A DNA stretch of 64,000 bases from a virus: IMG/VR virus record IMGVR_UViG_3300028030_000005, positions 1 to 64,000 of that record; one strand, 5' to 3'. The notes beneath the pieces are model-generated. The model saw only the letters and a program-made list of their open reading frames with translations. It made no database searches and was not told where the DNA came from. Of this stretch, positions 3,210-24,270 are shown piece by piece (the stretch's first letter is position 1; every line of letters begins with the position of its first letter). A program made the position numbers and the translations under genes.

Positions 3210-3492
3210 TCGCTAAATATTTTACATAAGCAGTGTTCTTATGAAATTGACGACGGCGTTGTTTCATTACAGATATCTTATCAACCAACTCACGTTGACG
3301 AAGTTTGTCCAGTCCAAAAGTATTCGGCTGATTTTCGATGATACTGGTAACGTTTTTACCGATTAACGATATCTCGGTAATTACATCGTCTGGAATTTGA
3401 AAGTCTGTGTAAATGTAGTAGGTGTTATCGATATACACTACATTATATCCTAAATCATTGATGATTTCAATAAAACTTACATTTGATGTCAT
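3202..3492 (-). CDS. Hypothetical protein (96 aa)
   Basis: ORF track; translationally coupled. Confidence 0.6.
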   Translation of the reverse strand: MTSNVSFIEIINDLGYNVVYIDNTYYIYTDFQIPDDVITEISLIGKNVTSIIENQPNTFGLDKLRQRELVDKISVMKQRRRQFHKNTAYVKYLANG

Positions 3493-3791
3493 TATAGTTT
3501 GTTTTTTAATTCTTGTTTTGTTCGTTGTTTTTTCAAAGCTACTTGTTCAACAGTACGAGCGTGTTTCTTTGAGATTTCCGCGATTTTTTTTGCAGTTTCT
3601 ACAACTACAGTATGTTTGTCCGAAAACACTTGAATTGACGAAGGTATTGTACTGATTTTCGTTAAAACAATGCCGCACTCATCTTTTAGAATGTTGCCGT
3701 CTAAATCTGTGTAGATTACTTCGCCGTTAACAACCTTTGTTTTGAATTGTGTTATGTTAACGATTTTATCTGTGCTTGTTTTGAATTGCAT
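3492..3791 (-). CDS. Hypothetical protein (99 aa)
   Basis: ORF track; translationally coupled. Confidence 0.6.
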   Translation of the reverse strand: MQFKTSTDKIVNITQFKTKVVNGEVIYTDLDGNILKDECGIVLTKISTIPSSIQVFSDKHTVVVETAKKIAEISKKHARTVEQVALKKQRTKQELKNKL

Positions 3792-3794
3792 AGT

Positions 3795-4283
3795 TTATAG
3801 TGTTTTTGATGCGTAGTATGCGATTAGTGCAGCATCTACTAATCCATCGTGAGCATTTCGAGCTCGCGAACTTGATAAGAAGCTTTCAGTCGGAAATAGT
3901 CGCTTTGCTGCGATTAAGCTGGTTTGTTTGGTTGTTTTTTGTTTTGTCACTCCTTGCCACGCTACTTTTTGCCACGCTTTCGCATTGACCAGTGCATATG
4001 GGATTTCCAATCCTTCGACCAATCCTTGTAAAATTCCCTTACCAAATCCAAAAGAGAAATTACTACTGTTACCAATGTTTTTGCCTTGAATTGCGTGTAC
4101 ATTCTCAATCGCAACGAATGCATTTGAATACGATGTTAAAATCTGTTTCAGTGCTTGAATATCATATTCTTTACCTACCATAGGCATCACATACTTTGCA
4201 ATGATTTTGTTATTACTTATAACGACAATCCCCCCTTTCTTTCCAGGGTCAATTCCTATATATTCAATACTAATCGATACCAT
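3795..4283 (-). CDS. ruvC: RuvC-like Holliday junction resolvase
   Basis: YIGIDPG, VAIENV, FSFG, WQK and HDGLVDAALIA motifs. Confidence 0.85.
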   Translation of the reverse strand: MVSISIEYIGIDPGKKGGIVVISNNKIIAKYVMPMVGKEYDIQALKQILTSYSNAFVAIENVHAIQGKNIGNSSNFSFGFGKGILQGLVEGLEIPYALVNAKAWQKVAWQGVTKQKTTKQTSLIAAKRLFPTESFLSSSRARNAHDGLVDAALIAYYASKTL

Positions 4284-16391: not shown

Positions 16392-16438
16392 GATTTCTAC
16401 ATCTTAAAAATACTAAATGTTTATCTTTTAAACAACAG
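16392..16438 (-). promoter_or_regulatory. 47-bp promoter/operator repeat, copy 3
   Basis: gatttctacatcttaaaaatactaaatgtttatcttttaaacaacag; overlaps the end of the DpdA-like gene. Confidence 0.75.
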
Positions 16439-17219
16439 ACTGTCTTAGAAAATCAATGTTGTTTTCAAAAGTAGTGGTGACTTGTAGTAACTTGTCAGAT
16501 TCGATTTTTCTTTCAAAATAGTTTTTTGGAGTCGGAATCCGTCGGAATCGTCCTTTAGTCCAGTCGATATCGTTCATTGCACTCCAAACTGAATTTGCAC
16601 TGTCAGAACTTCGAATGTACTTACTATACTCATCTTGTTGATAGTATGCATATTCGCGCGGGTCACCCATTCCGAGTAAGTGAAGTGGTTTTTGAAGTTT
16701 TCCATTTGCCTTCAACATATTGAATGCTATGTGTCGTGCTTCTTTGATGAATGTATCGTTTTCTTTATCTAACAACGCTTTTGGTACTGCGATTTTTGAT
16801 AGTCCTATTGTTTTAATCCACGGCTGTTCCAATCCCCATAAATAAGATTCAAACCAGTCGTCAGCAGTCTCTCCTTGTGGACAGAACAAAATTTCGATTT
16901 TATCATCCAATCCGGCTTTCTGCATTCTTTTATAGAATTTTTCTGCATTCTTTTTTGTTGTTTTTGCATCAAACAATACGTCTGGTGGAATCACTTCATT
17001 CGGCATTAATTCTGACATCACGTCAAATAAAATGTCCTCAGTAACTAATGAATGGTCTCCAGCGCCATTGTCGAGAGTAACCCACGCATTGGTAGGTAGT
17101 CGTTTAAAGAAATCACTATACTCTTTTGATTCTACATATAATTGAGCGAGACAAAAGTATCTATCTCCACTATGCATTAAACTCAAATGCTCTATTGGCG
17201 GTATTACGTAAAAATCCAT
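16428..17219 (-). CDS. dpdA: Divergent tRNA-guanine-transglycosylase-like protein (DpdA family, DpdA3-like)
   Basis: TGT-barrel motifs LDNGA, IPPD, PQG, HLLG and RSSDS; near folE/queD/queE. Likely start MDFYVIPP at 17219 (ORF track gives 17276). Confidence 0.75.
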   Translation of the reverse strand: MDFYVIPPIEHLSLMHSGDRYFCLAQLYVESKEYSDFFKRLPTNAWVTLDNGAGDHSLVTEDILFDVMSELMPNEVIPPDVLFDAKTTKKNAEKFYKRMQKAGLDDKIEILFCPQGETADDWFESYLWGLEQPWIKTIGLSKIAVPKALLDKENDTFIKEARHIAFNMLKANGKLQKPLHLLGMGDPREYAYYQQDEYSKYIRSSDSANSVWSAMNDIDWTKGRFRRIPTPKNYFERKIESDKLLQVTTTFENNIDFLRQSVV

Positions 17220-17673
17220 ATGTTTTGTTTTTAAATGTTCTACAATGTGGTCCCATTCCGTATTGAATAGATTCAATGTCCGTTAGTTTTCTGCCGCACT
17301 TTATACATTTTCCAGTATGATGATATTCTCCTACCTTCAACATTGCAGAAATATCATTTTCTACAATTTTCTTTAACAACCATACTGCACCTTGAACATA
17401 TTCACTTTGCGAATTTTGAAATTTTTTAAATCTCTTAACGATACGACTTTTTGTATTGTACAAAGCACATTGAGTGTATGAATCGTATCCTATTTCGTAT
17501 CCAACAAATACTGTGTATCCCCAATCATCGCTCTTGACTGATTTCAATTGAAATGTTATGTCTTTACCAGTTCTTTTCGACTTCACAACAATTGTTGACT
17601 TGATTTTCTTTTCAGCTTTGATGTATTGACTCAGTTTAGATAGTGCCGAAGGATTGATTACAGTGTTTTTCAT
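17170..17673 (-). CDS. DUF6011-domain protein
   Basis: C-terminal GKCIKCGRKLTDIESIQYGMGPHC zinc motif. Confidence 0.8.
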   Translation of the reverse strand: MKNTVINPSALSKLSQYIKAEKKIKSTIVVKSKRTGKDITFQLKSVKSDDWGYTVFVGYEIGYDSYTQCALYNTKSRIVKRFKKFQNSQSEYVQGAVWLLKKIVENDISAMLKVGEYHHTGKCIKCGRKLTDIESIQYGMGPHCRTFKNKTYGFLRNTANRAFEFNA

Positions 17674-19745: not shown

Positions 19746-19968
19746 TTTTTCGAATTATTTTAAAAATTTTTTCAACATCTGTTAATTTAACACTGCCGTT
19801 GTGATATTGCAGGGCGATAACAAACCCGTGCTCAGACTGAAATTTCTGTCGCACGGGTCGATTACACACACTAACTAAATAAATCCACGGATAATTATTG
19901 ACAAACTTGAGATGAATTCCGATAGATTTTAATCTATTATAAAGTACGTCAAGTTCATTCACGCTCAA
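19735..19968 (-). CDS. Hypothetical protein (77 aa)
   Basis: ORF track; NYPWIYL motif. Confidence 0.6.
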   Translation of the reverse strand: MSVNELDVLYNRLKSIGIHLKFVNNYPWIYLVSVCNRPVRQKFQSEHGFVIALQYHNGSVKLTDVEKIFKIIRKTVA

Positions 19969-20842
19969 AAATATACTTTTTAACTTGTAACAGTCCTAAC
20001 TCCTCGTCGCGTTGATTCAACTCATTGAATGTGACTAAATCTTTTGTTTTATCCTTAGATGAGCGTTCGTAACGCAGATATCTTGTGATTGATGGCGACT
20101 GCACCCACATCATATCTGCAAGTGGAAATGTTTTGAGTATCTCTACTTGACGAACTCCACTAACAACTACAAAATCATATGAACGAGCTGCCTTAGTAAT
20201 CTCTGCAACTATTGGTTGCAACAATTCCGGATGTCCTTGCAAATGTTTTCTCTCTGTCGCAGATACGTATTGCTTAACAATATCTGAAACTTCGAGTAAA
20301 ATTACTTTCTTGCCTCTGGCGAGTAGTTCTTTGTAATATCCACGAGCAACAGTAGATTTGCCACTTCTCATATAACCACAAACAAAAGCAATGTTAAAAT
20401 CCTTAACATTGGGATTGATTTGTTGTGGTTTTTCAATTTTCTCAAATTCAATCTTACTCAAATCAACGTCAATTCGAAACGGACTTTCGTACGACACAGT
20501 AGCTCCGTTTTCGCCATCCTCTAATACAGTACATTTTGAAAGTTGAAATCGGTCAACTAACTTTTCGGCAATCATCTCACACGACATCTGTCCAAAATCT
20601 GCTAATTGCAATTCGTCGTCCCACCAACTTTCGTGTAAAAATTTATACATTTGGTTTTGTAGGTCGATAATCTCAATATCTCTATCAGCGTGACTCACAT
20701 ACTTTTCAGCAGTGATTTTGAATATATGTCTATGTACGAATTGTAAGTATCCTTGATTCTTATGATACTTTGTTTTCGTTACTCCTGGCCACGCGTGAAT
20801 TCCGGGCATTTGAAAGTTTACTACTACATTAGTTGTTTTCAC
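19955..20842 (-). CDS. Fusion of a QueD-like T-fold domain (candidate CDG decarboxylase, DpdL-like) and a P-loop nucleotide monophosphate kinase
   Basis: N-domain GIHAWP...HRHIF...DRDIEI...SCEM...EDGENG; C-domain AFVCGYMRSGKST...VVSGVR...E...RYLR. Likely start GTG at 20842, overlapping the upstream stop. Confidence 0.7.
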   Translation of the reverse strand: MKTTNVVVNFQMPGIHAWPGVTKTKYHKNQGYLQFVHRHIFKITAEKYVSHADRDIEIIDLQNQMYKFLHESWWDDELQLADFGQMSCEMIAEKLVDRFQLSKCTVLEDGENGATVSYESPFRIDVDLSKIEFEKIEKPQQINPNVKDFNIAFVCGYMRSGKSTVARGYYKELLARGKKVILLEVSDIVKQYVSATERKHLQGHPELLQPIVAEITKAARSYDFVVVSGVRQVEILKTFPLADMMWVQSPSITRYLRYERSSKDKTKDLVTFNELNQRDEELGLLQVKKYIFERE

Positions 20843-21347
20843 GTTGCTTATCTTTTTGAAATTGTCCGTTATATAAGTCATCTTTATCAACAGCATCGTG
20901 TTGATATACAAGTGCTTGCGCAATTCTCGCACCATATTCAATTACAATCGGAACAAAAACTTGCATAACTGTTCCCATTTGTTCTGTCTCAAATCCAGGG
21001 TCAAAAACACTGGAATGTAGGTTTACACCATTTCTCAATAAAGAGCTGCGTTGACGGATTAGCAACGTTCGATTGTCTGGAATTTTACATCCTTGTTCAA
21101 ATGTTACGTCATATACTCCTGGCTCCAACACCCAAACGGCATTTTCTAATCCAATTTCTTTTCCAGATTGTTTCGGAACCAGCTCTTTTTGTCCGAGTTT
21201 AGTCTTTCCTTTCTCAGGAATAATACCTCCACCATAAATTCTTTGAATTTTGAGTACGTTAAGGTCGATTCCTACTTGTTGAATGTTGTCATCACGTAAC
21301 TGCCCTGTGATAATACCTTCGTTTACAATTTGTCTTGCTGTTAACAT
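20829..21347 (-). CDS. dut: Trimeric dUTPase / dCTP-deaminase-family protein
   Basis: GIDL, RSSLLR, FDPGF, RIAQ and YNGQFQ; lacks the TLE motif of deaminases. Confidence 0.8.
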   Translation of the reverse strand: MLTARQIVNEGIITGQLRDDNIQQVGIDLNVLKIQRIYGGGIIPEKGKTKLGQKELVPKQSGKEIGLENAVWVLEPGVYDVTFEQGCKIPDNRTLLIRQRSSLLRNGVNLHSSVFDPGFETEQMGTVMQVFVPIVIEYGARIAQALVYQHDAVDKDDLYNGQFQKDKQRENN

Positions 21348-21348
21348 A

Positions 21349-21891
21349 TTATTTATTTTTATTTAAAATTTTAACATAAGGTAGATTGCGATAAACTTGA
21401 TTTCCGAATGAATTTTGTAAATCCATACCAAAGCCATATAACCACAATCCGTCTTTCACGATTCGTCCTATATAATCTACGTGAAACTCTGCACTTTCAC
21501 GTTTTAATAAAGCAGACGTTCTTACAATAGCACCTTTCTTTTCAAATAACTGCTTTATTTTAATCATCGTTTCTGCCGTATCTACAATATCATCGAATAA
21601 AATCACTTGTGTACCGCTTTTAATGTTTTTTGGCATATTTTCTATTTTTAGTTTTCCTTTCGAAAATATGCCGTTATAACTCGATGCTTTGATATACTCG
21701 ACTTCTATCGGAACAGTTACTTTTGACAATACTAAGTTCATCCACGGAACCGCTCCACTCAATATCCCAACAGCAACTACATTTGATAAGCTGAATTGCT
21801 CATAATATTCGTTGATACTGTTTGCAACCCTTTCAGCGTATTGATTAATTCGCTTAAATCCTACTAATGTTTTGTCGTTATTTATTTTCAT
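21349..21891 (-). CDS. hpt: Purine (hypoxanthine-guanine-type) phosphoribosyltransferase
   Basis: GILSGA, SSY, VILFDDIVDTAET PRPP loop, GFGMD and YRNLPY. Confidence 0.88.
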   Translation of the reverse strand: MKINNDKTLVGFKRINQYAERVANSINEYYEQFSLSNVVAVGILSGAVPWMNLVLSKVTVPIEVEYIKASSYNGIFSKGKLKIENMPKNIKSGTQVILFDDIVDTAETMIKIKQLFEKKGAIVRTSALLKRESAEFHVDYIGRIVKDGLWLYGFGMDLQNSFGNQVYRNLPYVKILNKNK

Positions 21892-22544
21892 CTTTTGCGT
21901 GCTTTATCAATCAAACTGAATAATTCATTTCTCGATGCTGTGACATCAAAGAAATAGCCACTCAATTGTGATGTCATCATTGTACTGTCGTGATGAAGTT
22001 GACGACACTTAACACATCCGTGTTGTGCTTCAATTACGACAGCGATTCCACGATTACCTTTAATCAATTGGTCGAGTTTGTCGTGAATTTGTTTAGTCAA
22101 TCCTTCTTGTAGCTGCGGTCTTTTTGCATACCAGTTCACAATACGATTGAGTTTAGATAATCCAATCACAAGGTCGTCAGGACCTGTACCTGGAATGTAT
22201 GCAACGTGAGCAAGTCCTTCAACTTCTCTGTGATGATGACTACACATTGAATGAACCGGAATGTTTGTTTGGATTACTAATCCATTATATCCTTCATCAT
22301 TTGGAAATGCTGTTACTTTTGGCATCGGATTGACACATCCCCAGATGAAGTCATCAACAAAAGACTTTGCGTATCGATACGGTGTCTTTTTGGTGTTTTC
22401 ATCAGCTTGCCAATCAAATCCCAATGCAGTTAAAAAATCACCGTAGTGTTTAGCTGCTTCGTCAATCATTTGTTGTTTTTCTGCTTCTGTACGAACCAGA
22501 TTGCCATTCGCTCTTTCGAGCAATTTTAATTCTTTGCTATTCAT
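21888..22544 (-). CDS. folE: GTP cyclohydrolase I
   Basis: TPYR, SMCSHH, GLSKLNR, RPQLQE and HGC. Confidence 0.95.
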   Translation of the reverse strand: MNSKELKLLERANGNLVRTEAEKQQMIDEAAKHYGDFLTALGFDWQADENTKKTPYRYAKSFVDDFIWGCVNPMPKVTAFPNDEGYNGLVIQTNIPVHSMCSHHHREVEGLAHVAYIPGTGPDDLVIGLSKLNRIVNWYAKRPQLQEGLTKQIHDKLDQLIKGNRGIAVVIEAQHGCVKCRQLHHDSTMMTSQLSGYFFDVTASRNELFSLIDKARKR

Positions 22545-22561: not shown

Positions 22562-23317
22562 TTAAACTCCTCTTTTATTACCGTACGCAACTATATGAAT
22601 ACGGTCAGTGTAATTATATCCGTTTTGCCACGCATATTGCATAAGCCATCCGCGCGTTTTTTGAAGCTCATCATTCGTTCCTCCAGCAGGCATCAACCAA
22701 ACTTTTTCGTTTGGAATGTGTAATTTCTGCTGAAGTTCTTGTAATTCTTGCAACATCTGAGTATTTGAAATTACTGGTTTGAGTTGATAGTCCCGAGAGT
22801 CTATCATACTATATAACATCGCATCATAATTCTTGCGATTGGTTTCGTGTAATTTATAGTGTGTAGATGTAACTTTTTTACCGTCTGGTGCAGCAGTTCC
22901 TATTCTCGGACTACTATTCGATAACTTTGGACTCAATGACAGTAAATCCACTTTCAGTCCTTCGACAAACTTGCTTCCTTCAGTTTCTAATGTTACGTAA
23001 TGGTCGTAAGACTTTGCGATGTGAATCAAATCTTTTAGCAGTTTTTCGTGTAACGTCGGACTACCTCCAGTAATCATCGTATGTTTTATCTGTGGATTTT
23101 GCTTATAAATTGCAATCACGTCGTTAAGTGTGAATGAGCCCTTCTCTGGATTCCAGCTTGTATATGCACTATCACAGAAATCTGTATCGCTGAATTGACA
23201 TCTTAACGGACATCCTGTTGTTCTTATTAAGATGTGTGGGATTCCAGTCAGTTTACCTTCACTTTGTAAACACGGATACACTTCAACTATTGGCTGTGGC
23301 TTCTGATATTTTGTCAT
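22562..23317 (-). CDS. queE: 7-carboxy-7-deazaguanine synthase (radical SAM)
   Basis: LQSEG, RTTGCPLRC...FCDS, ITGG, ETEG, SLSPK and RIH...GNKRGV. Confidence 0.93.
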   Translation of the reverse strand: MTKYQKPQPIVEVYPCLQSEGKLTGIPHILIRTTGCPLRCQFSDTDFCDSAYTSWNPEKGSFTLNDVIAIYKQNPQIKHTMITGGSPTLHEKLLKDLIHIAKSYDHYVTLETEGSKFVEGLKVDLLSLSPKLSNSSPRIGTAAPDGKKVTSTHYKLHETNRKNYDAMLYSMIDSRDYQLKPVISNTQMLQELQELQQKLHIPNEKVWLMPAGGTNDELQKTRGWLMQYAWQNGYNYTDRIHIVAYGNKRGV

Positions 23318-23700: not shown

Positions 23701-24270
23701 TTAAAAAGAGACCTTACAATGTGATTTTGGCGTCTCCCAAAATTCAACTGCACTCACGACTACACCAATTTTCTGCATTTTCTCGCGTGCAATGTCCAAT
23801 AACCAACTGGTTAAATTTTCGCTTGTAGGAACGAAATCAACAAAAACCATTCCTTCGTACTTCTCATATACTGCAGGATGAACCGATTGTAATTGGTTTA
23901 AGTCAGGAAGCCAAAATCCTTGTGAAAATTTGTGTAGTTTATTGAAATCAAGCTTTCCGTCCTTACATAATTCCGGTACCTCGTGCCAAATAATAGGGTC
24001 GTTGATGTCCATAATAAATTTGTGGTCGAGCGTATCATCAATAAAATCTTTGAACCATCCTAAGTGCTTGAAGTCAGTTACCATTCCTCCTTCTAATATA
24101 GGAGCTTTCAGATGTACTTTGATTTTTCCTTGATGTCCGTGTAGATGGCGGCACTTTAAGCATTGGTCTCCATTTGAAGTGTATTCACTGTTTAATTTTT
24201 GGTTGTGGACTCTATGTCCATAACAGAAATCGAATTGTTTGTCGATTTCCCACATTCTTTGATTTTCCAT
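23701..24270 (-). CDS. queD: 6-carboxy-5,6,7,8-tetrahydropterin synthase
   Basis: FCYGHR, CRHLHGH, GMVTDF, LDH, PTSENL and WETP. Confidence 0.93.
   Translation of the reverse strand: MENQRMWEIDKQFDFCYGHRVHNQKLNSEYTSNGDQCLKCRHLHGHQGKIKVHLKAPILEGGMVTDFKHLGWFKDFIDDTLDHKFIMDINDPIIWHEVPELCKDGKLDFNKLHKFSQGFWLPDLNQLQSVHPAVYEKYEGMVFVDFVPTSENLTSWLLDIAREKMQKIGVVVSAVEFWETPKSHCKVSF

Follow-up and report, generated by a model that had tools for sequence, protein, structure and literature searches.

Why does a phage carry a QueD-like domain and a nucleotide-kinase-like domain on one polypeptide, and does this arrangement tell whether a modified base enters its DNA before or after replication? The question is raised by an open reading frame (ORF) in the 64,000-nt stretch of viral DNA analysed here, positions 1 to 64,000 of IMG/VR record IMGVR_UViG_3300028030_000005 (hereafter the window). 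A preliminary description of this ORF had read it as a putative 7-carboxy-7-deazaguanine (CDG) decarboxylase fused to a nucleoside monophosphate (NMP) kinase, and had taken the fusion to imply that the base passes through a mononucleotide and that DNA is modified before replication. We found a genuine two-domain protein, whose N-terminal domain is assigned by fold and motif to the published DpdL family and whose C-terminal domain has a counterpart in phage phiST. DpdL, this kinase and the transglycosylase-like protein DpdA3 form a conserved three-part core. Passage of the base through a mononucleotide is the explanation that we tentatively prefer.

The DpdL-kinase fusion protein

The coding sequence occupies 19955..20842 on the minus strand, as the preliminary description had it, with a GTG start at 20842 and a TGA stop at 19955-19957, and encodes 295 aa. 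In the ORF list of the window the uninterrupted frame extends over 19955..20941 (-). A TTG start at 20941, which would give a longer form, was ruled out, as the homologues begin at GTG 20842, and the protein's own database copy likewise has 295 aa. The end of the upstream dUTPase/dCTP deaminase (DCD)-like gene and the beginning of the fusion gene share 14 nt. An AlphaFold2 model computed with 32 homologues as input (mean predicted local distance difference test score, pLDDT, 84) consists of two folded domains: the DpdL domain (residues 1-120; 20483..20842 (-)) and an adenylate-kinase-fold P-loop domain (residues 148-295; 19958..20401 (-)). They are connected by a disordered linker (residues ~121-147; 20402..20482 (-)) with pLDDT 45-59, which falls into the gapped, unconserved alignment columns ~135-195.

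The motifs quoted in the preliminary description are all present, and they are invariant or nearly so in an alignment of 32 diverse homologues: H37-R38-H39-x-F41, R54-D55-x-E57, S87-C88-E89 and E108-D109-x-E111-N112 in the first domain and G161-K162 within GYMRSGKST in the second, where conservation extends to G229-x-R231-Q232 and to R254 and R257 of the lid. A search of 5.8 billion proteins retrieved the same fusion in ~80 protein clusters (273-332 aa, 86-91% query coverage, 25-66% identity), which come from many phage contigs of 50-106 kb, and 33 IMG/VR loci have it too. Both domains are conserved among these homologues; linker length and sequence differ from one to another. Since the fusion recurs with differing linkers on many independent phage contigs, we exclude a stop codon lost from the linker by sequencing error or an assembly artefact, a possibility that the preliminary description had kept in view.

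The fold of the N-terminal domain is that of QueD and related PTPS proteins. Its model matched E. coli QueD (4ntk) in Foldseek with TMt 0.69 and E 3e-5, and PTPS 2dj6 in VIA with Z 11.0 and a root-mean-square deviation of 1.9 across 92 residues. The Pfam PTPS model did not match the fusion protein even at E 0.1, and the identity of the domain came from its fold together with a motif described for DpdL. This QueD paralogue was named in phage phiST (CGPG_00067), where the hallmark LxxxHRHxF replaces the CxxxHGH of QueD (Cui, Hutinet et al., NAR 2023, PMC10516641). In the window the signature reads LQFVHRHIF (L33-Q-F-V-H37-R38-H39-I-F41), and L33, H37, R38, H39 and F41 are invariant in the 32 homologues. 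The DpdL domain thus shares with QueD/PTPS the T-fold, three His at zinc-ligand positions (H16, H37 and H39) and acidic residues, but carries Leu in place of the catalytic Cys. Canonical QueD is encoded separately at 23701-24270, in agreement with the earlier distinction between the two T-fold proteins. With the window protein as query, tblastn found DpdL of phiST (E 1e-10) and of ACP17 (E 4e-7); a profile of the domain matched phiST gp040 at E 1e-33, and the domain was assigned to phrog_17812. The genome also encodes DpdA3, FolE, QueD and QueE, and no match to QueC (PF06508) was found in the 97.6-kb record, estimated to be 94% complete.

By fold, motif and profile, the N-terminal domain belongs to the DpdL family and is a predicted CDG decarboxylase. 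This upholds the T-fold assignment of the preliminary description but corrects it in that the domain is a family already known from the literature; the decarboxylase part stays at the strength given by the original authors, who only proposed that DpdL converts CDG to 7-deazaguanine (PMC10516641). When dpdL and dpdA of phiST or ACP17 were expressed in E. coli with the kinase gene left out, no 2'-deoxy-7-deazaguanosine (dDG) was formed (PMC10516641).

The C-terminal domain is most similar to NMP kinases among proteins of solved structure. A profile search of the PDB returned 3lw7 (E 2.7e-8), which is Sulfolobus SSO1041, an adenylate-kinase-related protein crystallised with AMP, followed by AK1 and UMP/CMP kinase (E ~1e-3). 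VIA also placed 3lw7 first (Z 13.7), before uridylate kinase 1ukz (Z 12.7) and then adenylate kinases. Fold, P-loop and a short RxxR lid are common to SSO1041, AK1, UMP/CMP kinase and the window domain, and the (S/G)DIV(R/K) and GxRQ motifs of the latter resemble the 'GDLLR' and 'DGxPR' of adenylate kinases. The domain differs from the NMP kinases in sequence (14-28% identity) and in being fused to, or encoded in an operon with, T-fold and transglycosylase-like enzymes. Its Walker A motif GxxxxGK[ST] is G156-YMRS-G161-K162-S163. In 108 unique fused and split sequences conservation reaches 100% for G161 and K162, at least 99% for the set G161, K162, G229, R231, Q232 and R257, and at least 92% for the catalytic residues: P-loop Lys, GxRQ Arg and RxxR of the lid. 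Conserved Arg residues stand at NMP-site-like and lid positions (R198, R231, R254 and R257), and the Asp in 'SDIV(R/K)' varies (D/E/N/S). Conservation of the Arg/Lys pattern but not of this Asp suits an anionic phosphate acceptor. These comparisons point to NMP kinases as the closest solved relatives, as the preliminary description had supposed; the acceptor itself is not readable from sequence or fold.

Pfam, PHROGs and NCBIfam offered no functional name for these proteins. With Pfam AAA_18 (PF13238; gathering threshold 29.4 bits) the window protein scored 23 bits, below the threshold, and phiST gp041 (29.7) and the kinase of locus L012 (39.2) scored above it. The window protein had no match to the Pfam guanylate kinase model PF00625 at E<=0.1 and none to a guanylate kinase in NCBIfam.

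A conserved dpdL>kinase>dpdA3 core in phiST-type systems

In phiST, dpdL (gp040) is followed by gp041 (CGPG_00066), annotated as an 'ATPase containing protein' with PF13238, which precedes dpdA3 (gp042, CGPG_00065). The 2023 study assigned no role to gp041 and stated that it lacks homologues in other 7-deazaguanine phages (PMC10516641). In our searches, a profile of the window kinase domain matched gp041 at E 5e-26 and, at E 9e-36, the separate gene that follows dpdL in Chryseobacterium phage MA9V-3. Pairwise BLASTP between the window kinase and gp041 gave only E 0.004, and the hidden Markov model of phrog_19196, to which gp041 belongs, did not match the window protein at E<=1e-3. Judged by profile homology and by its position between dpdL and dpdA3, the kinase domain is orthologous to gp041.

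DpdA3 of the window (16428..17219 (-), 263 aa) is a minimal TIM barrel resembling tRNA-guanine transglycosylases (TGT). It is 45% identical to phiST gp042 (E 6e-79) and falls into phrog_20335. Its AlphaFold2 model (pLDDT 95) matched tRNA-guanine transglycosylases in Foldseek at E ~1e-6; a sequence-profile search of the PDB gave no match, and the TGT relation comes from the fold search only. Homologues place the start at ATG 17219 (MDFYVIPP) instead of TTG 17276, and the longest dpdA3 frame (16428-17276 (-)) shares its 5' end with a DUF6011 protein gene (17170-17673 (-)).

The linkage between kinase and DpdA3 was examined in IMG/VR, from which an alignment of DpdA3 retrieved 69 loci, 66 of them with strict, that is phiST-type, DpdA3. 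The kinase was present in 63 of these 66: fused to DpdL in 33, encoded next to a separate dpdL in 27, and located at a contig end in the remaining 3. Of the three loci without it, two are copies of the same sequence and the third is a truncated contig. After clustering at 90% identity, 33 of 35 clusters had the kinase. In 43 of the 63 loci the distance from its stop codon to the dpdA3 start is -8 to +20 nt, and the usual order dpdL>kinase>dpdA3 is fixed across sequences that are only 25% identical. Starting from DpdL, 9 of 82 loci contained the kinase, and all nine also had strict DpdA3. These observations define dpdL>kinase>dpdA3 as a conserved three-part core of phiST-type systems.

As the same two proteins are separate and adjacent in phiST, in MA9V-3 and in 27 IMG/VR loci, the earlier designation of the fusion as a Rosetta stone is borne out. 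A profile search of 1.84 billion representatives recovered 573 members of the kinase family; among the best 150 of them, ~36 are fused and ~110 stand alone. Three standalone kinases that were searched against IMG/VR had no relatives there. In a tree of the DpdL domain, which has too few columns to count fusion events, the split form of phiST clusters with the gut-type fused clade (SH-aLRT 93), and a single origin of the fusion may account for its distribution.

In some phages the trio stands alone. The genome G007 (85.5 kb; 85,565 bp with direct terminal repeats; L086:8794-10493) encodes only DpdL-kinase and DpdA3 of such a system, and no FolE, QueD/PTPS or radical-SAM gene was found anywhere in its record. 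Assignment of this phage to the crAss-like group was not supported. It is one of a large group of contigs (L086, L022, L036 and L130-L157; GC ~33%), many from IMG sample 3300045988, in which just dpdL-kinase>dpdA3 is embedded amid replication genes. FolE, QueD and radical-SAM genes are missing from their records, and neither a pyrophosphatase nor a phosphoribosyltransferase (PRTase) was detected. The trio therefore constitutes a minimal module for which precursors must come from the host, and such phages presumably draw 7-deazaguanine precursors from it. Trio phages of host-associated metagenomes that are devoid of CDG-synthesis genes would thus probably build their modified DNA from host queuosine precursors.

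The window itself has a more complete cluster. In transcription order it comprises queD, an ORF, queE, folE, a PRTase gene, a dUTPase/DCD-like gene, dpdL-kinase, small ORFs, a ligase gene, two ORFs, dpdA3 and a gene for a DnaE-type polymerase. Canonical QueD (23701..24270 (-)) was identified by Pfam PTPS at E 1.6e-25. The QueE-like radical-SAM enzyme, a CDG synthase candidate (22562..23317 (-)), matched Pfam Radical_SAM and, by phmmer, phiST QueE at E 9e-64; FolE, GTP cyclohydrolase I (21888..22544 (-)), had a Pfam E of 2.4e-41. The PRTase (21349..21891 (-)) is an HGPRT-like purine phosphoribosyltransferase, with Pfam Pribosyltran at E 5e-16 and the HGPRTase model TIGR01203 at E 5e-29, the latter below its cut-off. 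Directly upstream of the fusion and translationally overlapping it lies the nucleoside triphosphate (NTP) pyrophosphatase-like gene of the dUTPase/dCTP deaminase family (20829..21347 (-)), which matched Pfam DCD at E 1.7e-13 and the archaeal-type dUTPase model NF002598 of NCBIfam at E 6e-27, again below cut-off.

Compared with phiST, the window thus has the three core proteins in the same order (E 1e-33 for DpdL and E 5e-26 for the kinase by domain profiles, and 45% identity for DpdA3), QueD, QueE and FolE upstream, an NTP pyrophosphatase immediately before dpdL and a DnaE-type polymerase. The two systems differ in that dpdL and the kinase gene of phiST are separate and overlap by 41 nt, whereas the window encodes one polypeptide, and in that phiST has a MazG-like pyrophosphatase, whereas the window has the DCD/dUTPase-like one and the additional PRTase. 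PhiST, L110 and L119 have a MazG-like gene in the slot before dpdL, and the window, MA9V-3 and 20 IMG/VR loci a DCD/dUTPase-like one, so that two unrelated NTP pyrophosphatase families fill it. PRTases recur near dpdL in L003, L004, L055, L070, L013 and L030.

DpdL, DpdA3 and the existence of gp041 had been published. In the literature searched we found no paper describing the fusion or a role of the kinase, in line with the preliminary description, which knew of no account of the fusion; the fusion, the orthology of the kinase across phages and its standing as a core component appear to be new. The kinase is the third core component of DpdA3 systems, one that the founding paper set aside. The trio offers annotators a way into hundreds of phage genes now labelled 'hypothetical', many of them in host-associated metagenomes.

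The route of the modified base into DNA

We tentatively propose, as quite possible if somewhat short of probable, that the substrate of the kinase is a 7-deazaguanine (deoxy)nucleoside monophosphate and that the base reaches DNA as a triphosphate, before replication. The kinase would convert the monophosphate to the diphosphate, a cellular nucleoside diphosphate kinase would form the triphosphate, and the phage DnaE-type polymerase would incorporate it. The monophosphate could be made by the HGPRT-like PRTase from the base and phosphoribosyl pyrophosphate, or by base exchange on (d)GMP freed from (d)GTP by the adjacent dUTPase/MazG-type pyrophosphatase. Fusion of the kinase to hexameric DpdL would keep base production and nucleotide capture together.

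This nucleotide route is suggested by the NMP-kinase-like fold with its Arg pattern and by the recurring pyrophosphatase and PRTase genes. It also draws on the complete replacement of G in DpdA3 phages, by dDG in the phiST type, and on the detection of ADG nucleoside in the cytoplasm of CP220-infected cells (PMC10516641). A route through modified dGTP had earlier been proposed for Campylobacter phages (PMC6884629), and omission of the kinase offers an explanation for the failed reconstitution with dpdL and dpdA3. By analogy, though with no homology implied, the logic recalls two other pathways. Phage T4 makes hydroxymethylcytosine DNA with the dCTPase gp56, the dCMP hydroxymethylase gp42 and the deoxynucleoside monophosphate (dNMP) kinase gp1, and Z-genome phages use MazZ, DatZ and PurZ. 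The proposed route would be alike in combining an NTP pyrophosphatase, a maker of a noncanonical mononucleotide and an NMP kinase, with complete base replacement as the outcome. It would differ in that the base would be installed by a TGT-like barrel or a PRTase, which is unprecedented at the nucleotide level.

Several points weigh against this proposal. The activities of the kinase, DpdL and DpdA3 are all predicted, and every kinase locus also encodes the TGT-fold DpdA3. To our knowledge, the characterised TGT-fold relatives all exchange bases on polynucleotides. The fold does not fix the acceptor, as uridine kinase, gluconate kinase, Kti12/PSTK and T4 polynucleotide kinase scored only 2-4 Z units below NMP kinases in VIA; T4 gp1 was absent from the top 50 fold matches, which says nothing on homology to it. 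Campylobacter phage CP220 and the T4-like phages with DpdL and DpdA3-like proteins had no member of the kinase family, just marginal P-loop matches (E ~1e-3) in unrelated longer ORFs; these phages may use a gp1-type dNMP kinase instead. Near the gut-type minimal modules there is neither an enzyme that would remove dGTP nor a PRTase, and a ribonucleotide reductase was not found in the window genome. The stated view of the field is insertion after replication (PMC10516641), and bacterial DpdA, which needs the ATPase partner DpdB, sets a precedent for a role other than that of a kinase (PMC10164549).

That precedent leads to the main alternative, serious if doubtful, in which the P-loop domain would assist DpdA3 as an ATPase. 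In the manner of DpdB, its ATP hydrolysis would drive or license a post-replicative exchange of G for 7-deazaguanine (or CDG) on phage DNA, with DpdL supplying the free base. Bacterial DpdA is inactive without DpdB and ATP (PMC10164549), and there too a TGT-family transglycosylase is encoded alongside an obligatory NTP-using partner. The TGT fold of DpdA3 fits this alternative, as do the argument of the 2023 authors for post-replicative insertion and their failed heterologous test, from which the kinase was missing (PMC10516641). It would explain the tight coupling of kinase and dpdA3, which abut in most loci and persist with dpdL as a minimal module, as well as the nucleotide route does. Macromolecule-acting proteins of adenylate kinase fold (hCINAP/Fap7, Kti12 and PSTK) and T4 polynucleotide kinase are among the fold matches, and the kinase domain is basic (isoelectric point 9.3) compared with the acidic DpdA3 proteins (4.7-6.9). 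However, the domain is related to DpdB neither in fold nor in family: DpdB is a ParB-fold ATPase of the dimeric clamp type (PMC10164549), whereas the window kinase is an adenylate-kinase-fold domain of ~150 aa in which no DNA-binding module is visible. Membership in the DpdB type, with its ParB/SspE-like fold and DGQQR motif, was rejected for the P-loop domain, and an analogous role is still compatible with the data. The two systems also differ in extent, with less than 0.1% of G modified by bacterial DpdA and complete replacement in DpdA3 phages. The phage enzymes DpdA1 and DpdA2 are not reported to require an ATPase. Moreover, the fusion partner is DpdL rather than DpdA3: a search of the longer DpdA3 proteins for fusions to the kinase or to a DNA-binding domain found none, just two proteins that bear intein or LAGLIDADG domains. 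The recurring NTP pyrophosphatase, the PRTase and the DpdL fusion would also be left unexplained.

The PRTase can be read in another way, by which DpdA3 would modify DNA after replication and release one guanine per exchange, the PRTase would convert it to GMP, and the kinase would raise GMP to GDP, and then GTP, for FolE or for general supply. The HGPRT-like gene two positions upstream of the fusion, the recurrence of PRTases elsewhere, the NMP-kinase-like fold and the textbook role of GTP as FolE substrate all accord with such guanylate salvage. We regard it as improbable, since the kinase is kept in phages that have no FolE, QueD, QueE or PRTase: the lack of FolE in G007 and many other loci implies that the kinase is not simply feeding this enzyme. 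Hosts already possess guanylate kinase, whose Pfam model the window protein does not match, and salvage explains neither the DpdL fusion nor the tight coupling to dpdA3. We consider it quite improbable that a phage (d)NMP or nucleoside kinase of general function, unconnected with deazapurines, was fused to DpdL simply because nucleotide-metabolism genes cluster. Phages commonly encode dNMP kinases, sequence does not reveal the substrate, and standalone forms outnumber fused ones among the best 150 of the 573 database representatives, but co-occurrence is near-perfect in both directions (63/66 strict-DpdA3 loci and 9/9 kinase-bearing DpdL loci), gene order is fixed at only 25% identity, and the kinase is retained in minimal modules amid unrelated genes. 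A polynucleotide 5'-kinase that heals nicks left by base exchange on DNA, together with the nearby DNA ligase, is highly improbable. The kinase domains of T4 polynucleotide kinase and bacterial Pnkp are among the fold matches (Z ~10), bacterial Pnkp also weakly matched phiST gp041 (E 2.7e-4), and in both the window and L003 a ligase gene is situated between fusion and dpdA3. Against this, the general-base Asp of polynucleotide kinases is not conserved (D/E/N/S), a ligase is adjacent in few loci only, and TGT transglycosylation leaves the backbone unbroken, as is textbook knowledge.

Within the nucleotide route, which we prefer, a more specific version would be a closed, pre-replicative cycle that makes phiST-type genomes. 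The dUTPase/MazG-type enzyme would cleave dGTP to dGMP, DpdA3 would exchange guanine for 7-deazaguanine on this free mononucleotide and not on DNA, the DpdL-linked kinase would phosphorylate the product on the way to the dDG triphosphate, and the PRTase would recycle the released guanine. That all four steps hold is unlikely; if they did, DpdA3 would be the first known TGT-family enzyme acting on a mononucleotide. Of the preliminary description's central claim, the kinase relationship stands, and the passage of the base through a mononucleotide with pre-replicative timing stays a proposal, given the unreadable acceptor, the presence of DpdA3 in all kinase loci and the DpdB precedent.

Variant loci and neighbouring genes

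Several DpdL and DpdA3 homologues have additional sequence. Other apparent DpdL fusions (L020, L076, L057 and the N-terminal extension in MA9V-3) contain no Pfam domains in their extra parts, some of which may be ORF over-extensions. In MA9V-3 (L001:7554-8435) DpdL carries ~180 additional N-terminal aa, which gave no Pfam match, and the kinase is a gene of its own that begins at the DpdL stop. The two long DpdA3 homologues, P0260 (463 aa) and P0261 (490 aa), contain LAGLIDADG homing-endonuclease or intein domains (PF14528 and PF14527).

The sole type of strict-DpdA3 locus without the kinase, seen in L112 (4578-6780) and L114, has the order FolE2 (GCHY-1, PF02649), a weak DpdL-like ORF (E 1e-10), a 72-aa ORF and dpdA3. 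The T4-like clade, which is more distant (L013, L030, L043, L044, L049, L055, L057, L068, L074, L075 and L079), has folE>dpdL>dpdA3-like>DCD-like as its conserved order, without an adenylate-kinase-like gene. Genes for the gp45 clamp and the gp44 clamp loader are close by, and L013 and L030 additionally encode an RNase_T-like exonuclease and a PRTase.

Pyrophosphatase genes preceding dpdL were located at 20829-21347 (-) in the window, L002:7505-8092, L110:4620-5186 and L119:4111-4701. By eye and without alignment, the DCD-like copy of the window appears to have Gln ('VMQVF') at the position of the catalytic Glu of dCTP deaminases. In the phiST-like cluster of L110, a flavodoxin gene (3335-3838) lies between queE and folE and plausibly provides the reductant for the radical-SAM enzyme QueE.

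The Vut_1/YhhQ transporter family includes an importer of preQ0/preQ1. In Faecalibacterium phage Roos (PP479939.1; L091:5300-7896), the neighbours of DpdL (orf77) are a protein with a ParB_N domain (orf76), a 303-aa protein without annotation that may be a DpdA (orf78), and a transporter of this family (orf79). A phage importing a deazaguanine precursor raises the question whether DpdL acts on CDG alone.

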